This document shows positions 22,205 through 63,680 of a stretch of 64,000 bases of DNA, piece by piece. Numbering within the stretch: position 1 is the first letter of the stretch; every line of letters begins with the position of its first letter. Origin of the DNA: Escherichia phage V18. Position numbers and translations under genes: made by a program. The stretch is taken from the sequence record NC_041937.1; one strand, written 5' to 3'. The notes under the pieces are model-generated. The model was not told the DNA's origin and searched no databases. It was given only the letters and a program-made list of their open reading frames with translations.

Positions 22205-23244
22205 CTATGCATAATTAACAGTGATCCATTGACCATTTACAAGTTTTTGTAAAGGTCCTGCCCAGTAAGTTGAACCACGCATCTCTTTTTTGTCACCGAA
22301 ATGCCAGCCTGTGACAACGTAGCCGTTGCGGATTGGAGATTCAGAAACGCCGTCCACAAGTCTTGCACCGATTCTGATGTCTTGCACACCCGTCTGCGGG
22401 ATAGTGATCGTTACATCACCGTTACCGTTAGCCGTCACTCCGTTCACAGAGCGAACCACATTTCTGTTACCTACAACACAGTGCTGGCTTCTTACAACCA
22501 TACTGTCACAACTTGCACCACCATTAACATATACTGACCCAGCCGTCAACTGACTAGCCACATTACAGTTGGTGAATGTTGCGGTATTGCTGATAGTAAG
22601 GTTATTGCACCTCATGTTATCGACAGCTTCAACATTGCCTACCACTTTCAACAGCGCACGGTTAGCAGTGATCGCGTTAAGGTACATCAAAGTGAACTCT
22701 GGATTAATATCCGGCTGAGTTGGCTGGAATCTCCAACGAAACGCATCTATTGTAGATGTACCACCATCATCAAACGACCCAATATTATCACTTAACCCAA
22801 AGTCGAGAGTTGTCTTATCTGGGCCAATAGTTGTCTCTATCCAAGCCTTATCTGTCTCGGCAGCTTTAAAGTTGATACGTTGCAAACCCAATGGGCCTGT
22901 CATTGTATCACCTGTAACTTTTACATACCTGGCGTCTGCCTCTTCCTTGGTAATAATCCCAAGGTTTCTACGGGCAACAGGAATGTTCAAAAGATCACTC
23001 AAGTTATTATCACGTACCAGATAACGGCCTTCTTGAGCGGGGATCTGCTCGTCAGCAATGTATTTTGCCCAAGTTCCGAGCATATTGAAAATATAGTTAA
23101 GTTCTTCACATGAGGGCTTTTGACCAAGATCCCAACCTTTTCTCCACAAATCATCAATCGGGCGTAGCTGTTCTGTCTGTGGGTGTTAGGCAGAACCTGA
23201 TCCTCCTCTGCCCAAATCTCTAATGGAAAACTAGGTTTTGACAT
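22205..23244 (-). CDS. short tail fibre/receptor-binding protein (paralog A), apparent frameshift near 23180..23190
   Basis: ORFs 22205..23149 and 22999..23244 in different frames; together they align with paralog B from N-terminal PLxIWA motif to C-terminal KLVNGQWIT; shift maps to a CCC run. Confidence 0.5.
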
Positions 23245-42059: not shown

Positions 42060-43559
42060 TTACCAAAGGTCGGTAGACATGAAGTTGATATCTTTGCTGT
42101 TCTCCCACTCAAGTTTTGCATCAAGTATTTTGCTAAACTCACCCTCATCTATGGAAAGCGTGATTTTCCCATCACTGATCTCTAAAGGTAGCATTTCCAT
42201 AGTTCTTAATTGAGAAGCAAAACCAGGGCCACCTGGCAACGGAAGAGTCCCGCCCGGCAAAGTGTCCAAAGGATTAACAAACCCGTTACCTCCCGATATG
42301 ATATCTTTGCGAATCATATCGCTGATAGTATCCAGTTGCTGATTTCTTTCACTCAGTGGGTTGAAACGGTCATTAAATAATTCCCCGGCGCTTAATATTG
42401 TACCGATAATGCCCAGCTTGCCGAGCAGACCAACTTTACCACCAGGTGTCTTGAGGCCACCTCCACCTTTTCCTGCCGCGCCACCACTACTAGATCCTTC
42501 TGCAGTAGCGGCACCCGCTGCTCCAGCTGCACCCCTTAGAGAGTTAAGGAATTTAAAGGTTTTTACAAGCATAGATGCCATGACAAAACCTTTTGTTAGG
42601 GCGTTGACTACCAGCATGATGGCAGCAGCAAACCCTGCCCATTTAGCATAGCTAAAGGTGTCATGAAGCTCTTCAGAATATTCCTTCGTCTTAGCTGTTA
42701 TGAATCCCCATTTAATCCCCCATTCAAGGAAAAACATGCGGATCTTGACTATAGTGTTGTTTAGTTCACCAACTACCCAGTTAAGGCCTCTCACAAACCC
42801 ACTAACAAAATCACCAGAGGCATCCCACACAAATTGCAGAGTCTCACCAGTGCGGATTAATGTATAATAGAACTCTGTTAGTTCGTCAGACCAACGGGTG
42901 AACAGTTTCTGACGAGTCAGTTCGATGAAGGTTTTCAGTCTGTTTTCTGCCAGCACGTTAGACTTCTGCATTCTTTCATAACCAGCTGCAGATGCCTCGT
43001 TCATGTACTTAGCCACATACTTCATGATCTTGGCTGTTTTAACCTCACCTTTCTTCATCATGTCCATGAACTGATCCATGGATAGTTCAGAAAGACCAAA
43101 AGCCTCTTTAGTGGCCTTGATAAAAGGTTCGTATGCACCAGGCAAGGCTTCAGCAAGTTGTTGCTTCAGTTCTTCGGACATTACTTGTCCCTTGCCAAGC
43201 ATCTGTTGGATTGCCATAATACCGCGCTGGTATTTTACCTCATCAGCACCATAAGCAGCAGCATACTGGGAGTATGCAGAAAACAGCTCATGCACTTCCT
43301 GATTTGTCATCTGGTTTTTGGCGTTTACCGACATCTGGGCGTAACCTTGAAGACCAGATTTGAGATCAAAACCAAGACGCATAGCCTCTTGCTGGACAAA
43401 CGCAACCTCACTGTTGGCTTTGTTTGGATCTCCAGTAACAGCAGTAAGAGCAGCACTTGCCCCCTCCATCATGTGACCGGATCTGTTAACCGCAGCAAAT
43501 CCAGAAAAAGCTGTATACGCAGCTGTTGCATTAATAACAGATCTACGTAAGTCTCTCAT
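42060..43559 (-). CDS. tape measure protein (C-terminal part or whole)
   Basis: 499-aa ORF; helical, Gly/Ala-rich internal tract, position between chaperones and baseplate. Confidence 0.5.
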   Translation of the reverse strand: MRDLRRSVINATAAYTAFSGFAAVNRSGHMMEGASAALTAVTGDPNKANSEVAFVQQEAMRLGFDLKSGLQGYAQMSVNAKNQMTNQEVHELFSAYSQYAAAYGADEVKYQRGIMAIQQMLGKGQVMSEELKQQLAEALPGAYEPFIKATKEAFGLSELSMDQFMDMMKKGEVKTAKIMKYVAKYMNEASAAGYERMQKSNVLAENRLKTFIELTRQKLFTRWSDELTEFYYTLIRTGETLQFVWDASGDFVSGFVRGLNWVVGELNNTIVKIRMFFLEWGIKWGFITAKTKEYSEELHDTFSYAKWAGFAAAIMLVVNALTKGFVMASMLVKTFKFLNSLRGAAGAAGAATAEGSSSGGAAGKGGGGLKTPGGKVGLLGKLGIIGTILSAGELFNDRFNPLSERNQQLDTISDMIRKDIISGGNGFVNPLDTLPGGTLPLPGGPGFASQLRTMEMLPLEISDGKITLSIDEGEFSKILDAKLEWENSKDINFMSTDLW

Positions 43560-44395
43560 GCATCGCCTAGTGTAAGCGTTTGGCTGGTGGCACTTTTAAA
43601 TCCAGACTGCAGTGCTGACAGGTGGGCGTTAAAGGTTGACTTTTTCATCTCCCCGCGAGCAAACCTGGACTCTAACTCTGAGTATCCTGGCAAGCTTCCA
43701 CGGAATCCGGCCCCATACTTGGCAGAAAGTCTTATCGCGGAGTTGTAGAGGTGGGTTCTTCTTGCCTCACGATCCGACATAAGCCTATTATCCATACCAG
43801 CTTTACCGTCCCTTCTTAGCTGTCTATGATAACGATTCATAGCAGCTGTCTGAGCTTTTACAAGATTAGGGTCGGAAGCCACACCACCCATATTAGGGTT
43901 ACCGGGGATATATTTGAAAGCTTTGGCATTAGCCAGAACTCTTGCCTTAGGTGCCTTATAACCGCCGTAAGACACTGGTGCAGATTTGGCAGCCTTTTTG
44001 GCCTCTTTAGCTTGCTGCTGGTAGAACTTACGCATCCTAGCCATTTCTGGATTTTTAGCGGTAAGATTACCTACAGCTTGTTTACGTCTCGCATTCTCCC
44101 TACGTTCTATTGCAGCCCTTACTGCAGCCTCTTTCTTGGCCTGTGCTACGCTCTCCCTGTGCAGCTTAGCATTTGCCTGAGATTGCTGTCTGGCAACCCG
44201 CTGCATTGTCTGCTGGGTTTTAACAGCTACCGCCTGCCATCTACTCATGGGGTTGGCTGAGTTAAAATCCTCACCTAGTTTCCTGAACTCCCTCCCAATA
44301 CTGCGAATTTTCTCTACAGCTTTTTTGTAGGAGGAGTTCTCTATCTCAAAGCCAATCTTGTTGACTGTTGTGGCAACTATTTTGTTTGTAGCCAT
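43556..44395 (-). CDS. basic coiled-coil protein, possibly N-terminal part of tape measure
   Basis: 279-aa K/R/A/Q-rich ORF; ATGA overlap with 42060..43559. Confidence 0.45.
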   Translation of the reverse strand: MATNKIVATTVNKIGFEIENSSYKKAVEKIRSIGREFRKLGEDFNSANPMSRWQAVAVKTQQTMQRVARQQSQANAKLHRESVAQAKKEAAVRAAIERRENARRKQAVGNLTAKNPEMARMRKFYQQQAKEAKKAAKSAPVSYGGYKAPKARVLANAKAFKYIPGNPNMGGVASDPNLVKAQTAAMNRYHRQLRRDGKAGMDNRLMSDREARRTHLYNSAIRLSAKYGAGFRGSLPGYSELESRFARGEMKKSTFNAHLSALQSGFKSATSQTLTLGDA

Positions 44396-56485: not shown

Positions 56486-56531
56486 TTTAAAGGTTCCTTT
56501 TGTTTATATATGTTTAAAGTATAACTGAAAG

Positions 56532-56608
56532 TGGTCTCCACGGAGTGATTCGAACACTCGACCTCCTGATCCCAATGGTTTATCTCTACCAAGCTGAGCT
56601 ACGCGGAG
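56532..56608 (-). tRNA. tRNA-like gene, possible anticodon TGG (Pro), anticodon stem does not pair as read
   Basis: Good acceptor stem, TTCGAAT T-loop and encoded CCA; putative anticodon loop ATTGGGA but flanking stem unpaired. Confidence 0.45.
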
Positions 56609-56619
56609 TATTTATTATT

Positions 56620-56694
56620 TGGTGGCCCTGGGTGGAATTGAACCACCGTCTGGCGATTATGAGTCGCTTGCTTGAACCTTCCAGCTACAGGGCA
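56620..56694 (-). tRNA. tRNA-Met/Ile-like (anticodon CAT)
   Basis: T-arm GGTGG-TTCAATT-CCACC, anticodon loop CTCATAA, encoded CCA; position 1:72 mismatched. Confidence 0.55.
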
Positions 56695-56770
56695 TGGTGC
56701 TGATAGCAGGACTCGAACCTGCAACCTATTGATTACAAATCAATTGCACTACCAATTGTGCTACATCAGC
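56695..56770 (-). tRNA. tRNA-Thr (anticodon TGT)
   Basis: Clean cloverleaf: 7-bp acceptor, D-stem GCAC/GTGC, anticodon stem ATTGA/TCAAT with loop TTTGTAA, T-arm GCAGG-TTCGAGT-CCTGC, CCA encoded. Confidence 0.7.
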
Positions 56771-56775
56771 AAAAA

Positions 56776-56860
56776 GGTGCTAGGTGATGGAATCGAACCA
56801 CCTATGTATTCAACGACCAATAGATTTACAGTCTACACCGCTACCTCTACGGGATAACTC
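56776..56860 (-). tRNA. tRNA-like sequence, Tyr-like anticodon arm (GTA) with long variable region; no acceptor stem found
   Basis: Anticodon stem-loop GTAGA-CTGTAAA-TCTAT and T-arm with TTCGATT loop present; 5' and 3' ends do not pair. Confidence 0.3.
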
Positions 56861-56867
56861 CCCAATT

Positions 56868-56942
56868 TGGCACCCCGTACTGGACTCGAACCAGTGTCAA
56901 CGGCTTAGAAGGCCGCTGCTTTATCCACTAAGCTAACAGGGC
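56868..56942 (-). tRNA. tRNA-Arg (anticodon TCT)
   Basis: Acceptor GCCCTGT/ACGGGGT (with G-U pairs), anticodon stem GCGGC/GCCGT with loop CTTCTAA, T-arm ACTGG-TTCGAGT-CCAGT, CCA encoded. Confidence 0.65.
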
Positions 56943-57038
56943 ACTGGGTGGCTTTCTTTTACACCTTAGCCGCCAGAAAAGGTGGGAGACCATGTTTACA
57001 ATATTACACTGTTAAGCAAAGTTTGTCAAGAAAATATT

Positions 57039-58819: not shown

Positions 58820-58924
58820 AGCTGCCTCCTCTTCAAGTTATAGAAAAACTCACTGTATCGCTTTGTAACGAGCTTTTCTATCAAACTGGTGCGATTGCCT
58901 TACCTGGTATAGTTTATATAGCTG

Positions 58925-59190
58925 TGGAGCGATTTAGGGGCCTTCTTGTCCGTTTCCACACATAAACTTCATCCAAGCTCGCGCGGGAGACTCTCAACCG
59001 ACTCCTTACGGCGCTGGCAAGCTTTCGTCGGTGGTCCACATCAGTGCTCGGCCTTTGGCCTGCGCTATCGCTTCGCTCCCACACATGTTAACAGACCTGC
59101 ATGTATGCACTTCTGTTATTGTGTGCACCCGGGAGGCCCGGCATCTCGCCCCTCGTAGCGAGTGCCAATGAAGGGCCGACACTACCCGTA
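58925..59190. other. GC-rich non-coding island, possible structured RNA or origin-associated element
   Basis: About 260 bp visibly richer in G+C than flanking DNA; several short hairpins (CCGGG-AGG-CCCGG, CTCGC-n8-GCGAG); only ORF is a low-complexity 70-aa frame without RBS. Confidence 0.3.
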
Positions 59191-59320
59191 GTAAGTAATA
59201 AATTTAAAACATAGTACTTAGGATCTAGTATATTCTACATAAGTTAAGTATATGTACTTAGTACCATAAGTACTAGATCTTTTATTTTTTATTATTTAGT
59301 TATTTTAGTTATATTCTTTA

Positions 59321-59457: not shown

Positions 59458-59808
59458 CTAACCAGTTGTTGACATTCGAATAACTTCTTCTGGTGGCAAA
59501 ACTTTGGAAAATGTGCATCTTTTACCTCTCCCTTGTGTGGATATTTCAACCACTCCTGCACATTCTAAAGTTTTAACGCACGCTGCTGCTTTTGTTTTCT
59601 TTATCCCAATATCTGCTGCAATTTTCCTTGTGCTGGGCGTGAAGCGTGAATTTCCTCCAAGCTTATACCAGTTGTGCAGGTAGCAGTATACGATCTTGTC
59701 ATATAAGTCAAGAACAACAACCTCACCAGTTGTGTCATTCAAAACTTTTGACATAGACAGTATTTCAAGGGGGACTTTAAGATATAGCAGCTTATCCCCA
59801 TCTTTCAT
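59458..59808 (-). CDS. winged-helix/HTH DNA-binding protein
   Basis: 116-aa ORF; STRKIAADIGIKKTKAAACVKTLECAGVVEI resembles wHTH recognition region. Confidence 0.45.
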   Translation of the reverse strand: MKDGDKLLYLKVPLEILSMSKVLNDTTGEVVVLDLYDKIVYCYLHNWYKLGGNSRFTPSTRKIAADIGIKKTKAAACVKTLECAGVVEISTQGRGKRCTFSKVLPPEEVIRMSTTG

Positions 59809-59855: not shown

Positions 59856-60410
59856 TTACTCCCCGCTGTCAATAGCAAGACTCATTGCAATACGGTATGC
59901 CTCTTCTAATGGTAAGAGTCTCCCCCACACATCCCAACCGACATCAAACTGCCTGCCAAACAACTGCTGTGTGGTTCCGTGAGCATGACCGAACAGTTGG
60001 ACCGATCCGTGAGGCTTTCTGTTCCACTTTGCAAACTGGTAATGGCTCATACAGATCAAATTCTTGTTGTGGCGAAGCTCGTAATAATCTACAACCTCAT
60101 GACCGAACTCTTTCATAATTCTGACAGTCGTCCTTGTGTCATGGTTACCACGAACAAGAATAATATGTCCGTTCAACATATTTAGAACATCTGGGAGCAA
60201 TTTGTTAATATTCTTATCATTAGTGCACGCAATATCTCCTAAGTGAAACACAGTGTCTGCAGGTGACACAACAGAGTTCCACTTGGTGATGATCCCCGCA
60301 TTCATACTGTCAAGATTGTGATCATACTGAGATCTGTGTTTTTGACATGAGTCAAACTCCATGACCCGCTGGTGGAGAAAGTGTGTGTCGCTTGTTACAA
60401 AGTATTTCAT
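59856..60410 (-). CDS. calcineurin-like metallophosphoesterase (RNA-repair-type phosphatase candidate)
   Basis: Start moved to ATG 60410 with GAGGA RBS; motifs DTHF, GDI and GNHD in canonical order. Confidence 0.6.
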   Translation of the reverse strand: MKYFVTSDTHFLHQRVMEFDSCQKHRSQYDHNLDSMNAGIITKWNSVVSPADTVFHLGDIACTNDKNINKLLPDVLNMLNGHIILVRGNHDTRTTVRIMKEFGHEVVDYYELRHNKNLICMSHYQFAKWNRKPHGSVQLFGHAHGTTQQLFGRQFDVGWDVWGRLLPLEEAYRIAMSLAIDSGE

Positions 60411-60417
60411 ACATTCC

Positions 60418-60885
60418 TCATTTAAGTTTAATGCAGTTTTTAAGCTGGCGTTCCATACGATCCACAACCCTGTCTGGAACATCATGAATGCTTTTACTAC
60501 CATGGCGGTTTTCAACCACGATTACGGTATAACTATACCCATGACTGATCGCCATGTCAATATATTCTTGCACATATTTTTCTTTTGTAAATGTATTACT
60601 TACCACGATACGGTCGTATCCCATACGCATCATATCTTCTACGTTATCTTTGCACCATTTTGCTGCAAGTGTTACTTTACTTGCATCCCAGTTGTAATTT
60701 CCATCATCGTCGTACCAGAACATGTCGTTCTCAAAATGTGGATACAGACCTTCTAAAGATAGCGCACTTGCCAGTGTTGATTTGCCAGACCCTGGTAGAC
60801 CACGCACGATATATAGCATTTTAGACATAGTAATCCTCCGTTTTAATTTCAACGATAGTATACCTAACTGTTTTGTTAATTTCAA
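60418..60885 (-). CDS. P-loop kinase (polynucleotide kinase-like)
   Basis: 155-aa ORF; Walker A GLPGSGKST at N-terminus as in T4 Pnk-type kinases. Confidence 0.6.
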   Translation of the reverse strand: MKLTKQLGILSLKLKRRITMSKMLYIVRGLPGSGKSTLASALSLEGLYPHFENDMFWYDDDGNYNWDASKVTLAAKWCKDNVEDMMRMGYDRIVVSNTFTKEKYVQEYIDMAISHGYSYTVIVVENRHGSKSIHDVPDRVVDRMERQLKNCIKLK

Positions 60886-60946
60886 GTGTTGACACTAGGT
60901 TATTTGTGTGGCAGGATAGACTGACAAAATGACAAATGAGGAACGT

Positions 60947-61606
60947 ATGATGAAGTATTTTAATGCAGACGACCTAGTTGACAAAGGTCTTGTAACCAGC
61001 AGATATTACACAGATCTTGGGTTAAAGATCTATAAATATGCCAGAAAAGTATTTTACAACAATTTATGGCATTTGTCCCCTCGTTTACTGGAGTGCCGAG
61101 GCATTGTTGTCGGTAATGAAGGAAATGTTGTGGCATGGCCCTTCACAAAAGTGTTTAACTTGGGAGAAAACTCCACCAACCTGTCTGACAATAAGCTTGT
61201 GACGGCGGTAGAGAAAAAGAACGGATTCCTTGGTGTGGTATCATCTCATAAAGGTGAACTATTGTTCTCAACAACCGGATCTCTTGATTCTCCATATTGT
61301 AACCTCGCAAAGGAAACCATCCAGGAGCAATGTGGTAATTTAGATCTTATCAAGAAGGTTATGGGCAATGAAAACATGACATTCATGTTTGAAATTTGTC
61401 ACCCTTCAGATCCGCATATTGTTCAGGAAGATCATGGCGCATATTTGATAGGTTGCAGGTATAATGATTCTGGAATAATGCTACCAGAGGCAGCTTTAGA
61501 TGGGATTGCCAAATACCTTGGTGCAAAACGTCCTCACACTGTGCGTGAAATTCCGTTCAGCTATGCAAAAGAATTGGCTGCAGAAACAAGAGGTGAAGGT
61601 ATATGA
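60947..61606 (+). CDS. putative RNA ligase / nucleotidyltransferase
   Basis: Start moved to ATG 60947 with GAGGA RBS; candidate motif I EKKNGF; assignment tentative. Confidence 0.4.
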   Translation: MMKYFNADDLVDKGLVTSRYYTDLGLKIYKYARKVFYNNLWHLSPRLLECRGIVVGNEGNVVAWPFTKVFNLGENSTNLSDNKLVTAVEKKNGFLGVVSSHKGELLFSTTGSLDSPYCNLAKETIQEQCGNLDLIKKVMGNENMTFMFEICHPSDPHIVQEDHGAYLIGCRYNDSGIMLPEAALDGIAKYLGAKRPHTVREIPFSYAKELAAETRGEGI

Positions 61607-61863
61607 TTCGTAAGCCTTACTATCCTTATGATCTGCAGCTGAAGATTAAGTCTCCATACTATCTGGCACGGAAGGCCGTAATGAGGGGTAAAGCTTGGAA
61701 GATTTGGGATGATGATATCTTTAAACGTGTTGACGAAGAGTTTTACGGCATGGTAAACTTCATTCGTAGCAATTACACAGAAGATGTGTGGAACTGCCTC
61801 CTGGAGCAGGAACGCCGTGAGATACTTGACTGCTATTTCCACAACGAGGACTATATGCAATGA
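61603..61863 (+). CDS. small hypothetical protein
   Basis: 86-aa ORF, ATGA overlap with upstream gene. Confidence 0.4.
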   Translation: MIRKPYYPYDLQLKIKSPYYLARKAVMRGKAWKIWDDDIFKRVDEEFYGMVNFIRSNYTEDVWNCLLEQERREILDCYFHNEDYMQ

Positions 61864-62042
61864 AGAAGTGGAAAGTTCTTTTTAATCACTCCAGAGAAAC
61901 GTCAAATTATGGGCTCCCAGACGCTATTTGGCTAAAGAATTCCTCCGAGTTTATGGATTTTATTAACGATAATAGAAAGCTCTACAGACGCGTTTCTGAG
62001 TGGCATATGGACAACGACCTTGGAGAGGTGTTCGAAGGGTAA
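61860..62042 (+). CDS. small hypothetical protein
   Basis: 60-aa ORF. Confidence 0.35.
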   Translation: MKKWKVLFNHSRETSNYGLPDAIWLKNSSEFMDFINDNRKLYRRVSEWHMDNDLGEVFEG

Positions 62043-62211
62043 GACTGTTTTATTGCGCTTGGAAGAGCTATTTGTATTTGGTAAGCCTCCTGTAGTTGAC
62101 AACGTGAAGATTTTCGTGCATACTTCTAACCCATCAGCGGCTCGTAAATTCATGCTTGCGGCTGACTCGTTTAAAAAGTTTGGAATAGAGATTAAACAAA
62201 ACATCTACTGA
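62020..62211 (+). CDS. small hypothetical protein
   Basis: 63-aa ORF overlapping previous. Confidence 0.3.
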   Translation: MERCSKGKTVLLRLEELFVFGKPPVVDNVKIFVHTSNPSAARKFMLAADSFKKFGIEIKQNIY

Positions 62212-62219
62212 GGACACTT

Positions 62220-62921
62220 ATGCGACGACTGATTGTTATCTCCGGTGCTGGTTTGAGTGCTGAATCTGGTATTCCCACTTTCCGATCTGGTAGCACTGCA
62301 ATGTGGGAGAATTTCAGCATCGATGAGGTGTGCAACATCCACACCTTTGCCAAGAACTACTATAAGGTGCATGACTTTTACAATGCACGTCGTGTAGCTT
62401 TAGGCAGTGTTGAGCCTAACCTTGCACATCTTCGGATCGCTGAGTGGTATTCCCGCTGGTCTGGTCGTGTGATCAACCTTACCACCAATGTAGATGATTT
62501 GCTGGAGCGTGCTGGTGTAAAACATGAAGATATTTTACATGTCCACGGGTATTTGCCAGAAATAGTCTATGAGGACGATGAAGGAAGTGACGTCATTAAG
62601 GACATTGGATACTCTGAGGTAGACGCAGGAAAGTATACCTGGGTTAAGCCTAATGTGGTGTTCTTCGGAGAAGTAGCTCCGAAGTATACAGACATGTATG
62701 ACCTGTTGACTTCTCTTACGAGCAATGATATGGTTATCCTTGTAGGGTGCTCCAACACAGTTATCAATTTTAACTGGGAGCATCTAGAGGAGAATGGCAT
62801 TTCACGTAGTGATATTTACCAGTATGAGGATCGCGGCATCCCAGTTTGGTTTAACGGTGCGGTTGATGCCTTCTCTGATAAAACATTCATTGAGACTGTA
62901 GAAAACTTTATGGAACTTTAA
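62220..62921 (+). CDS. Sir2-family NAD-dependent protein deacylase/ADP-ribosyltransferase
   Basis: 233-aa ORF; GAGLSAESGIPTFRS N-terminal sirtuin signature, HG dyad, VFFGE motif. Confidence 0.7.
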   Translation: MRRLIVISGAGLSAESGIPTFRSGSTAMWENFSIDEVCNIHTFAKNYYKVHDFYNARRVALGSVEPNLAHLRIAEWYSRWSGRVINLTTNVDDLLERAGVKHEDILHVHGYLPEIVYEDDEGSDVIKDIGYSEVDAGKYTWVKPNVVFFGEVAPKYTDMYDLLTSLTSNDMVILVGCSNTVINFNWEHLEENGISRSDIYQYEDRGIPVWFNGAVDAFSDKTFIETVENFMEL

Positions 62922-62934
62922 AAGGAGAACTTTA

Positions 62935-63648
62935 ATGCTGAATACTAAATTAATTGACAACCTGGAAAAACTATCCCAACCTGAAAACTACCTTTGGTCT
63001 GCCAACTGGGTGGAAAACTGGAACCGTGTGGCAGCTAAAGTGAAAAAATCATACACACCATTCGAATTACAGCTTAGCTTCATTGAGGAAGAGTTCAATG
63101 AAGTTTTGGAAGAGCTGGAGAAAGGTGATGGTGGAGATCACCTGCTAAAAGAGGCCTGCGATCTTCACGTTGTCACAAGTTATGCCGCTTATCTTGTTAA
63201 TGACAATCACGAAAAGTGGTCAAGCCTGTTTGATAATCCACAGGGTCTTAAGTTCAAGATCGGTGAGTTCTATGATACCCTGATCGCTGCGAAAAACACA
63301 CCTAAGCAAAGAGCGTCAGCTTACCGCTTAGCGGAGTTGTCAACAGCTTTGCTGTTCCAGCTTCGCGGCGATGTGTGCGGGATGATGCGTAAGGTTCTCA
63401 AATCGAATGACAGTAAGTTTGCACGGGTCAACCATCTACGGTATTCACACGGTGCCAGTGCAGATATGCCTGCTGAACAACTCATCGAGTTGGAGATTAA
63501 AGATCTTGAGCGACGCTTTGATGGTAGATATGAAGGTTTTGTTGCTAAGGAAGAGTTCTACAACGGTAATAAAGTTATCATATTCCTTGACAGTAAAGGT
63601 AAGATCATGAAGCCTTCGAGCTTCAAGGATGTAACAGAGTATATTTAA
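62935..63648 (+). CDS. MazG-like nucleotide pyrophosphohydrolase domain protein
   Basis: 237-aa ORF; EEEFNEVLEELEKGDGGDHLLKEACDLHVV matches MazG-type acidic helix motif. Confidence 0.5.
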   Translation: MLNTKLIDNLEKLSQPENYLWSANWVENWNRVAAKVKKSYTPFELQLSFIEEEFNEVLEELEKGDGGDHLLKEACDLHVVTSYAAYLVNDNHEKWSSLFDNPQGLKFKIGEFYDTLIAAKNTPKQRASAYRLAELSTALLFQLRGDVCGMMRKVLKSNDSKFARVNHLRYSHGASADMPAEQLIELEIKDLERRFDGRYEGFVAKEEFYNGNKVIIFLDSKGKIMKPSSFKDVTEYI

Positions 63649-63650
63649 CA

Positions 63651-63680
63651 ACATAGCCGGGATTACCCGGCTTTACTTGT
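63651..63680 (+). terminator. putative rho-independent terminator
   Basis: AGCCGGG-ATTA-CCCGGCT hairpin followed by T-rich tract. Confidence 0.4.

Follow-up and report, generated by a model that had tools for sequence, protein, structure and literature searches.

A sirtuin-centred gene neighbourhood, designated 'type 2', has been described in Escherichia phage V5 and Proteus phage Mydo, and was predicted to specify an NAD-dependent RNA-repair system (Iyer, Burroughs, Anantharaman, Aravind 2022, Viruses 14:1977; PMC9503650). A Tpt1-like role was proposed for the sirtuin, a MazG enzyme was named as part of the set in both phages, and in the jumbo-phage version the sirtuin is paired with a different pyrophosphatase, of the Nudix type. 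Escherichia phage V18 is a Vequintavirus (rV5-like), and the two genes considered here, those of a Sir2-family protein and of an NTP pyrophosphohydrolase (NTP-PPase), are already annotated and published in rV5-type coliphages. What is new is that the 'MazG' partner is dimeric-dUTPase-like in structure and is inherited with a DNA ligase gene, and that the V18 sirtuin carries a deletion.

Genome organization

The window analysed is a 64,000-nucleotide stretch of the V18 record (NC_041937.1), to which all positions refer. All six published type 2 genes lie within nucleotides 59856–63648, the RNA ligase and cREC (cyclic-phosphate-processing receiver) genes being frameshifted in the record. A first-pass annotation, made from the sequence, had reported adjacent Sir2-family and MazG-like genes, and both ORFs were confirmed; they specify 233 and 237 amino acids respectively and are separated by 13 nucleotides. 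The features of the region are as follows:

56620–56942, − strand: phage tRNA cluster (ARAGORN and Rfam), about 3–4 kb from the RNA-repair genes
59856–60515, − strand: calcineurin-like metallophosphoesterase (Pfam Metallophos and Metallophos_2, about 4e-6; PHROG 547, 5e-52)
60418–60885, − strand: PNK-like P-loop kinase (Pfam AAA_33, 4e-10; PHROG 2071, 6e-58; PHROG 505 'polynucleotide kinase', 1e-9)
60929–61863, + strand: T4 Rnl1-type RNA ligase, heading the co-directional string (Pfam RNA_lig_T4_1, 5.4e-14; PHROG 562, 1e-54)
61860–62211, + strand: cREC gene, both halves of which match PHROG 1479, in order
62220–62921, + strand: Sir2-family gene, YP_009602309.1 (Pfam SIR2; PHROG 2162; CobB, 1s5p)
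62935–63648, + strand: NTP-PPase ('MazG-like') gene, YP_009602310.1; NTP pyrophosphohydrolase, all-alpha and dimeric-dUTPase-like in fold, to which a conserved C-terminal beta-hairpin and a lysine-rich tail are added
63655–63672, strand not given: GC-rich hairpin (AGCCGGG-ATTA-CCCGGCT) directly after the NTP-PPase stop codon, a terminator-like site on both strands

The order on the + strand is thus RNA ligase, cREC, Sir2 and, last, NTP-PPase, the latter preceded by the ribosome-binding site AAGGAG. The kinase and phosphoesterase genes lie upstream of this string on the opposite strand and are divergent from it. With the starts annotated in relatives, the kinase would have 136 amino acids (about 60418–60828) and the phosphoesterase 184 (about 59856–60410); the kinase of phage RudolfGeigy carries the annotation polynucleotide kinase. 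The intact cREC protein of a relative (116 amino acids) matches Pfam cREC_REC at 1.3e-14. An ARNold terminator is annotated in phage Gotham at the place matching the hairpin, which is a probable terminator of the four-gene string; the four genes are probably co-transcribed.

The Sir2-family protein

Assignment of the first gene to the Sir2 family held up well. Its product matches Pfam SIR2 (PF02146) with an E-value of 2.3e-27 (96.5 bits, the cut-off being 24; residues 9–181) and PHROG 2162 'Sir2' at 4.5e-96, and among solved structures it is closest to E. coli CobB (1s5p; E-value=4e-21). The NAD-binding GAGxS motif, the F/R cofactor loop and the catalytic Asn/Asp/His (N90/D92/H109) are all found, and G9-A10-G11, S16, F21, R22, Y54, R57, N90, D92 and H109 are invariant across 33 phage Sir2 proteins, that of V18 included. 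The class III Tyr-x-x-Arg pair is likewise present, FY54NAR57R of V18 aligning with FYNARR of CobB, and is invariant in the phage clade. The four-cysteine zinc module is absent: the V18 protein has no cysteine between H109 and F148, and none of the 33 proteins of the clade possesses a CxxC pair, whereas CobB has zinc cysteines in the stretch aligned to the small domain of the phage proteins. On these alignments, the V18 protein is a CobB-like class III sirtuin belonging to a phage-specific, zinc-less clade. A Y-x-x-R pair suits an ordinary desuccinylase as well as it does the RNA-end role discussed below.

The protein might be a mimic of CobB which removes acetyl or succinyl groups from proteins of the host or the phage, reprogramming metabolism or translation with no RNA chemistry at all. 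Canonical deacylase sirtuins need the zinc-binding cysteines, and the loss of these from the whole clade argues against such an activity, as does the presence of RNA-end phosphoesterases beside Sir2 in two unrelated gene contexts. In its favour are CobB and SIRT5 as nearest solved relatives, the many phage lineages in which Sir2 lies apart from RNA-repair genes, and the invariance of Y54 and R57, this pair being the desuccinylase determinant of class III sirtuins, where it binds the negatively charged acyl group. We regard a deacylase as possible, if on the doubtful side.

Gene integrity in V18

The first-pass annotation had staked its Sir2 reading on the catalytic residues; Asn, Asp and His are in place, but the V18 copy has lost an NAD-binding Rossmann strand. 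An in-frame deletion of 60 nucleotides after about position 62778 has removed 20 amino acids, LFPACNKGTKLLIVNKYDSQ, that are present in all relatives examined. This segment aligns with GGKLVIVN of Sir2Tm and GAKMIIVN of Af2, corresponding to the Rossmann strand which ends in a conserved Asn (..VVN); the Rossmann fold is complete in the relatives and incomplete in V18. Four columns that are invariant in the other 32 phage Sir2 sequences are removed with it, and in the predicted model of the V18 protein no strand takes the place of the lost one, the junction (residues 185–192) having a pLDDT below 50. Because 20 residues, including the Rossmann strand and four family-invariant positions, are lost, the V18 sirtuin is probably inactive, through a deletion that appears unique among the relatives seen. 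The deletion could itself be an artefact of assembly, since the V18 record has error-like frameshifts in essential genes. If it is real, the Sir2 gene would be dispensable for growth on the production hosts.

The RNA ligase gene is split into 60929–61606 and 61603–61863 by the loss of one G from a GGG run at about 61597, relatives having an intact 305 amino acid enzyme, and the cREC gene is split into 61860–62042 and 62020–62211 by a 1-nucleotide difference in length within a locally divergent patch (about 62040–62075). Three lesions in three consecutive genes might mean that the module is decaying in V18, the RNA ligase and cREC being real pseudogenes and Sir2 an inactive deletion allele, all tolerated with functions that are dispensable on the production hosts. 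As a therapeutic phage, V18 has been propagated for a long time; its genome measures about 129 kb, compared with about 137 kb in its relatives, and the neighbouring tRNA cluster, in which three tRNAs were called against seven in a relative, is also short of about 405 nucleotides. However, comparable single-base indels interrupt the genes for the tape measure and the short tail fibre in the same record, which a viable phage could not tolerate, and among the three lesions only the in-frame deletion is unlike a sequencing error. The two frameshifts therefore look like sequencing errors, and for them the decay reading was rejected; for the module as a whole we consider it improbable.

The NTP pyrophosphohydrolase

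The second gene had been read as MazG-type, which stands at the level of the superfamily; by fold, its nearest family is that of the dimeric dUTPases. The V18 protein alone passed no Pfam cut-off (PRA-PH, PF01503, 13.4 bits against a cut-off of 21.3; no match to MazG, PF03819), and matched PHROG 671 'nucleotide pyrophosphohydrolase' at 5e-22. Across its family, PRA-PH was matched by 45 of 62 members and MazG by 17 of 62 (E-values up to 0.01), and the family profile found HisE (1yvw; E-value=0.011) among PDB entries. The AlphaFold model of the V18 protein (pLDDT 95) has the all-alpha NTP-PPase fold and is similar to solved dimeric dUTPases (PF08761). The metal motif E-x-x-E ... E-x-x-D, its residues as in dimeric dUTPases, is carried on helices 43–63 and 68–87 of this model; among close homologues E53, E56 and D76 are invariant and E73 is nearly so. 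Motif V of dimeric dUTPases supplies an Asn that anchors the deoxyribose and, close to it, a basic residue that binds phosphate. S-N158-D-S-K161 is also invariant in the homologues, and N158-x-x-K161 resembles, by motif pattern and not by superposition, Asn158/Arg161 in motif V of the phiDI dimeric Dut (PMC5608427).

At the positions after the ExxD motif where the His-Phe couple that selects uracil and keeps out ribose would be expected, on an inferred positional mapping, V79 is invariant and V80 nearly invariant. The specificity of the enzyme is uncertain because the His-Phe pair thus appears replaced by Val-Val; dimeric dUTPases of staphylococcal phages are also without the selecting His. 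Pfam dUTPase_2 was not matched by the V18 protein, nor is it among the 25 families most matched by its relatives. Kinship with the T4 gp56 dCTPase/dUTPase, which itself matches dUTPase_2, was considered and rejected (hhalign probability 1.9%; one acidic helix in common at most), and matches to CsuC in a single-sequence search of PDB sequences were spurious. A mimivirus thymidine-kinase fusion is among the matches of a fold search of BFVD. In many database records the NTP-PPase is mislabelled 'Sir2-like protein'.

The complete genome of the relative RudolfGeigy encodes ribonucleotide reductases and thymidylate synthase, and no dUTPase is annotated in it. Using tblastn with one E. coli Dut sequence as query, no trimeric dUTPase was recognised in the relative genome or in the window (best E-value=0.75), a weak negative result. 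Since the former enzymes are encoded and a trimeric dUTPase was not recognised in this relative, the NTP-PPase, which would split pyrophosphate from a (d)NTP and leave the (d)NMP, most likely sanitises the dNTP pool or supplies dUMP, acting on dUTP and/or dCTP.

Distribution among phages

A related-locus search with an alignment of 13 sequences provided 36 NTP-PPase loci. In 35 of the 36 an ATP-dependent DNA ligase gene is situated 0.7–2.6 kb away; Sir2 is within 10 kb in 15, and Sir2 and the NTP-PPase are direct neighbours in only two loci, both of Vequintavirus. Among 63 Sir2 loci, 13 contain the NTP-PPase. A group at 53–55% identity carries the DNA ligase as well as the NTP-PPase and is without Sir2, Rnl1, PNK and cREC. 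Whatever the lineage, the NTP-PPase is a neighbour of the DNA ligase and of replication or recombination exonucleases, whether Sir2 is present or not. The gene maps of Mydo, muut, phAPEC8, JLBYU50 and IrmaTschudi are consistent with this picture. The NTP-PPase is inherited with the DNA ligase and not with Sir2, and direct adjacency of the pair is confined to Vequintavirus. In Justusliebigvirus, Sir2 is found 27 kb from the RNA-ligase cluster, amid unknown genes. In T5-like phages Sir2 is followed, after about 300 nucleotides, by the gene of a HAD_SAK_2 'Swiss-army-knife RNA repair' phosphatase (E-value=6e-18), which is an independent tie of Sir2 to RNA end processing.

Following Iyer et al. 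(2022), the six genes would form one NAD+-dependent RNA-repair pathway, in which the sirtuin acts on the ends of cleaved tRNA, ADP-ribosylating or removing their 2'-phosphate, and the pyrophosphatase degrades a nucleotide that arises as by-product or intermediate. The inclusion of the MazG enzyme in the sets of V5 and Mydo and the Nudix enzyme beside the jumbo-phage sirtuin (PMC9503650) are in keeping with this. So are the tight packing of the four + strand genes in Vequintavirus, with one shared terminator, and the company kept by Sir2 in loci with the NTP-PPase (PNK-like kinase in 12 of 13, Rnl1 in 11 of 13). Yet the NTP-PPase stands beside the DNA ligase with no Sir2, RNA ligase or cREC in loci L004, L014–L017, L024, L030 and L031, and in most genera the DNA ligase gene, often with an HNH gene as well, separates Sir2 from the NTP-PPase. 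All-alpha NTP-PPases, moreover, split the alpha-beta bond of NTPs, and the closest folds are dUTPases. We consider a single pathway unlikely.

In Vequintavirus the NTP-PPase gene is found inside the RNA-ligase/Sir2 transcription unit, and the terminator falls between it and the DNA ligase gene. This arrangement tells against two separate enzymes and would also fit a shared pathway.

Proposed functions

The reading to which we give about half of our confidence is that Sir2 and the NTP-PPase are two separate conserved accessory enzymes, adjacent by a genus-specific gene order and not a two-gene system. It builds on the folds, motifs, gene order, deletion and co-occurrence observed above, while context suggests the substrates and biological roles. 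The sirtuin would most likely serve, as an NAD+-using enzyme, in the healing of broken tRNA or RNA ends. In the scheme of Iyer et al. 2022 (PMC9503650), ADP-ribose would pass from NAD+ to the terminal 2'-phosphate and the phosphate would then leave, as with Tpt1/KptA. T4-type repair, by a kinase-phosphatase and Rnl1, yields no 2'-phosphate, so that a Tpt1-like step is not obviously needed.

A more far-reaching proposal makes the zinc-less sirtuin a new NAD+-using RNA-end enzyme, an analogue of Tpt1 whose Y-x-x-R pair grips the 2'-phosphate of cleaved tRNA, with the dUTPase-like enzyme clearing the by-product and the four-gene string constituting a complete tRNA-repair pathway against anticodon nucleases; we think this rather improbable. 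Confirmation of the published prediction would mean a new reaction for sirtuins and a new phage route to undo tRNA-cleaving defences.

In the first-pass annotation both families had been associated with manipulation of host nucleotide/NAD metabolism and with countering NAD-depleting or nucleotide-signalling defences, and a further suggestion is that the pair defeats such immunity by acting on NAD+ or nucleotide messengers. Nucleotides are substrates of both superfamilies and NAD+-centred phage counter-defences are common (NARP1–3), the NARP3 paper dealing with genes other than these. A sirtuin, however, uses up NAD+ and would worsen its depletion. Domains of NAD+-rebuilding enzymes (Nampt/Nmnat, Adps/Namat, NadR/PnuC) were not found in the eight neighbouring ORFs, and the annotation of the complete RudolfGeigy genome includes none of these enzymes. 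PADLOC scans of Sir2 and the NTP-PPase gave nothing meaningful, and the match to Pfam SIR2_2, which we take to be the defence-associated SIR2 type, is weak (E-value=0.16). The sirtuin is of the housekeeping type with neighbours that heal and seal RNA ends or serve DNA metabolism, and it is with the DNA ligase, not with Sir2, that the NTP-PPase is co-inherited. The suggestion is unsupported in the literature searched, in which no experimental work on phage sirtuins, or on counter-defence in rV5 or Vequintavirus, was found. We judge it very improbable.

Comparison with known systems

The phage sirtuin shares with E. coli CobB and human SIRT5 the Pfam SIR2 fold, GAGxS, the F/R loop, the catalytic Asn/Asp/His and Y-x-x-R (PDB E-value about 1e-21); it differs in having no small-domain zinc cysteines and another C-terminal region, and its clade is restricted to phages. 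The proposed analogue is the RNA 2'-phosphotransferase Tpt1/KptA; the likeness is that an RNA 2'-phosphate would be removed with the use of NAD+ as part of an RNA-repair gene set, and the folds are unrelated (ART versus Rossmann sirtuin). To our knowledge, no sirtuin is biochemically known to remove an RNA 2'-phosphate.

The NTP-PPase has in common with MazG and HisE (PRA-PH) the all-alpha superfamily and its metal-binding motif, with weak Pfam PRA-PH or MazG matches in many members. Compared with the dimeric dUTPases of phiDI (5myd), C. jejuni (1w2y) and L. major (2yay), to which it shows 8–14% identity with dUTPase_2 unmatched, it has Val-Val where His-Phe is expected and adds the conserved beta-hairpin at the C-terminus, in which Y199, K223 and K226 are invariant.

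As a gene set, the V18 locus agrees with the type 2 neighbourhood of Iyer et al. in its sirtuin, T4-like RNA ligase, cREC, nucleotide kinase, MazG-superfamily pyrophosphatase and calcineurin-like phosphoesterase, V18 belonging to the prototype genus. It departs from the prediction made for that neighbourhood in that the MazG-like member is tied to the DNA ligase and not to the sirtuin, and in the 20-residue deletion of the V18 sirtuin.

The gene pair and its neighbourhood

A Sir2-family gene followed at once by a MazG-type pyrophosphohydrolase gene had been proposed in the first-pass annotation and read as a counter-defence pair. The two ORFs lie on the same strand, 13 nt apart, with an AAGGAG ribosome-binding site upstream of the second, in a region that over 100 genomes of Vequintavirus (rV5-like) share at 96–98% identity. 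An exact look-up of the proteins assigns the window to Escherichia phage V18. The two ORFs end a string of four co-directional genes:

60929–61863, co-directional with Sir2: Rnl1-type RNA ligase
61860–62211, co-directional with Sir2: cREC (cyclic-phosphate-processing receiver domain)
62220–62921, + strand: Sir2, 233 aa (YP_009602309.1)
62935–63648, + strand: NTP-PPase, 237 aa (YP_009602310.1)
63655–63672: perfect 7-bp GC-rich hairpin (AGCCGGG ATTA CCCGGCT), with a terminator score on both strands

The first ORF matches Pfam SIR2 (E=2.3e-27, 96.5 bits; cut-off 24 bits) and PHROG 2162 'Sir2' (4.5e-96). Queried alone, the second falls under all Pfam cut-offs (PRA-PH, 13.4 bits); it matches PHROG 671 'nucleotide pyrophosphohydrolase' (5.3e-22), which is already its RefSeq name. 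Given these positions and family matches, the observed pair is real. Although the domain calls are correct, the counter-defence interpretation found no support. The locus is a gene neighbourhood already known, annotated and published, 'prototyped by Escherichia phage V5 and Proteus phage Mydo' (Iyer et al. 2022, PMC9503650). Many GenBank/UniProt entries wrongly name the NTP-PPase gene 'Sir2-like protein' (in UniProt, the records nom, inoa, naam, bov22_2 and DrSchubert), which appears to be an annotation error spread from the neighbouring gene.

The hairpin closes the string and stands between NTP-PPase and two small unknown genes, with a DNA ligase further downstream; a terminator annotation by another group falls at the equivalent place in phage Gotham. 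On the opposite strand, diverging from the string, are genes for a PNK-like kinase and a calcineurin-like phosphoesterase, and a tRNA cluster lies 3–4 kb away. The intact cREC of relatives matches Pfam cREC_REC at 1.3e-14. Beside the phosphoesterase gene is a 116-aa HTH protein (59458–59808, − strand; DUF6945/HTH_36 in a relative), labelled 'transcriptional regulator' or 'replication initiation protein' depending on the record. At 58900–59200, six-frame ORFs give Arg/Ala/Ser-rich peptides, which suggests DNA more GC-rich than its flanks; relatives have only tiny annotated ORFs here, and no Rfam family reached the gathering score.

Linkage of Sir2 and NTP-PPase

Thirty-six NTP-PPase loci and 63 Sir2 loci were collected and each was searched for neighbouring gene families. 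An ATP-dependent DNA ligase lies 0.7–2.6 kb from NTP-PPase in 35 of the 36 loci, the sole exception being truncated, and Sir2 lies within 10 kb in 15; the two Vequintavirus loci alone have it immediately next to NTP-PPase. Between the two genes stands the DNA ligase in Mydo-like and PVP-SE1-like genomes, joined in Mydo by an HNH gene; in Justusliebigvirus they are 27 kb apart. Sir2 is missing from the vicinity in phAPEC8-like loci and in a group at 53–55% identity, all of which keep DNA ligase and NTP-PPase; the latter group has no RNA-repair genes either. Conversely, NTP-PPase is present in only 13 of the 63 Sir2 loci. In T5-like phages the gene that lies some 300 nt downstream of Sir2 is instead a HAD_SAK_2 phosphatase ('Swiss-army-knife RNA repair'). 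Two independent contexts thus tie Sir2 to RNA-end enzymes. NTP-PPase goes with the block of DNA ligase and exonuclease genes.

After Sir2 and HAD_SAK_2, T5-like phages encode a neighbouring pair of DUF7415 proteins (E=1e-28 to 1e-36; in phage IrmaTschudi, locus L009, 6674–7507), which may be part of the same module.

Lesions in the V18 record

Comparison with the complete relative genome RudolfGeigy revealed single-base indels throughout the window, roughly every 5–6 kb, which look like sequencing or assembly errors. Two genes are affected by single-base deletions:

42060–43559 and 43556–44395, − strand: tape-measure gene, split
22205–23149, − strand: short tail fibre gene, shortened near 23167

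V18 is a therapeutic phage, and since a viable one cannot carry such lesions these are probably sequencing errors. Relative to all relatives, the RNA ligase is split by the loss of one G from a GGG run at about 61597, and cREC by a 1-nt excess within a locally divergent patch (62040–62075). Decay was considered for these two frameshifts and rejected, because the same type of indel breaks the tape-measure and tail fibre genes.

Two larger deletions are unlike this error type and may be genuine. In the tRNA cluster (56500–56960, − strand) about 405 nt are absent between an odd 99-nt tRNA-like gene and tRNA-Tyr, leaving a chimeric junction and removing tRNA-Ser. The tRNA-Pro anticodon arm is disrupted by an 8-nt substituted patch, and three tRNAs are callable (Met-CAT, Thr-TGT, Arg-TCT) versus seven in RudolfGeigy.

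The second deletion makes the window Sir2 gene 60 nt shorter, in frame, than its relatives, with a 3-nt AGC repeat at the flanks. The residues removed, LFPACNKGTKLLIVNKYDSQ, correspond in alignment to ...KLVIVN, a Rossmann strand in Sir2Tm and Sir2-Af2, and include four columns invariant in the remaining 32 sequences of a 33-homologue alignment. Among the records listed, every phage record spanning the junction has the extra 60 nt; of the best 120 Sir2 protein clusters, none but one fragment is shorter than 247 aa, and the 233-aa form is on record in one contig, the 253-aa forms in hundreds. In the AlphaFold model, junction residues 185–192 have pLDDT below 50 and no strand takes the place of the deleted one. 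Provided the deletion is real, the V18 allele is therefore probably inactive.

Comparison with known systems

The 'MazG-type' label of the second protein is right at superfamily level only. By an exhaustive HMMER search its family is small, with 82 representatives out of 1.84 billion, all of about 200–260 aa and aligned full length, with invariant N30, E53, E56, D76, V79, N158, K161, Y199, K223 and K226. Pfam PRA-PH was matched by 45 of 62 members and MazG by 17; against the PDB the family profile gave a weak HisE match (E=0.011), and profile comparison detected no relation to T4 gp56. The AlphaFold model (pLDDT 95, pTM 0.90) has as BFVD structural neighbours a mimivirus thymidine-kinase fusion and phage 'dUTPase'/'NTP-PPase' entries. 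The acidic E-x-x-E ... E-x-x-D tetrad and Asn158-x-x-Lys161 resemble the catalytic motifs of the phiDI dimeric Dut (PMC5608427). The His-Phe couple which selects uracil and deoxyribose appears to be replaced by Val-Val, and the substrate is therefore uncertain. In the complete relative genome there are genes for class I and class III ribonucleotide reductases and for thymidylate synthase, but none annotated as a dUTPase; tblastn with a single E. coli Dut query found nothing, which is weak evidence of absence. This gene content is consistent with a part for the enzyme in dUTP or dCTP house-cleaning.

The window Sir2 is unlike SIR2_2 (E=0.16), the defence-associated sirtuin type, and unlike any PADLOC model. 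Of solved structures, those nearest to it are CobB from E. coli and human SIRT5 (~1e-21). The class III pair Y54/R57 is invariant in the 33 aligned phage proteins, as are the NAD-binding GAG motif, the F21/R22 loop and the catalytic residues N90, D92 and H109. The zinc-binding cysteine pairs are absent from the entire clade in this alignment. A literature search found no experimental follow-up to the proposal of Iyer et al. (2022, PMC9503650) that the sirtuin acts on RNA 2'-phosphates like KptA/Tpt1. The most interesting possibility at the locus, already in the literature, is that the zinc-less sirtuin clade may perform Tpt1-like RNA 2'-phosphate removal.
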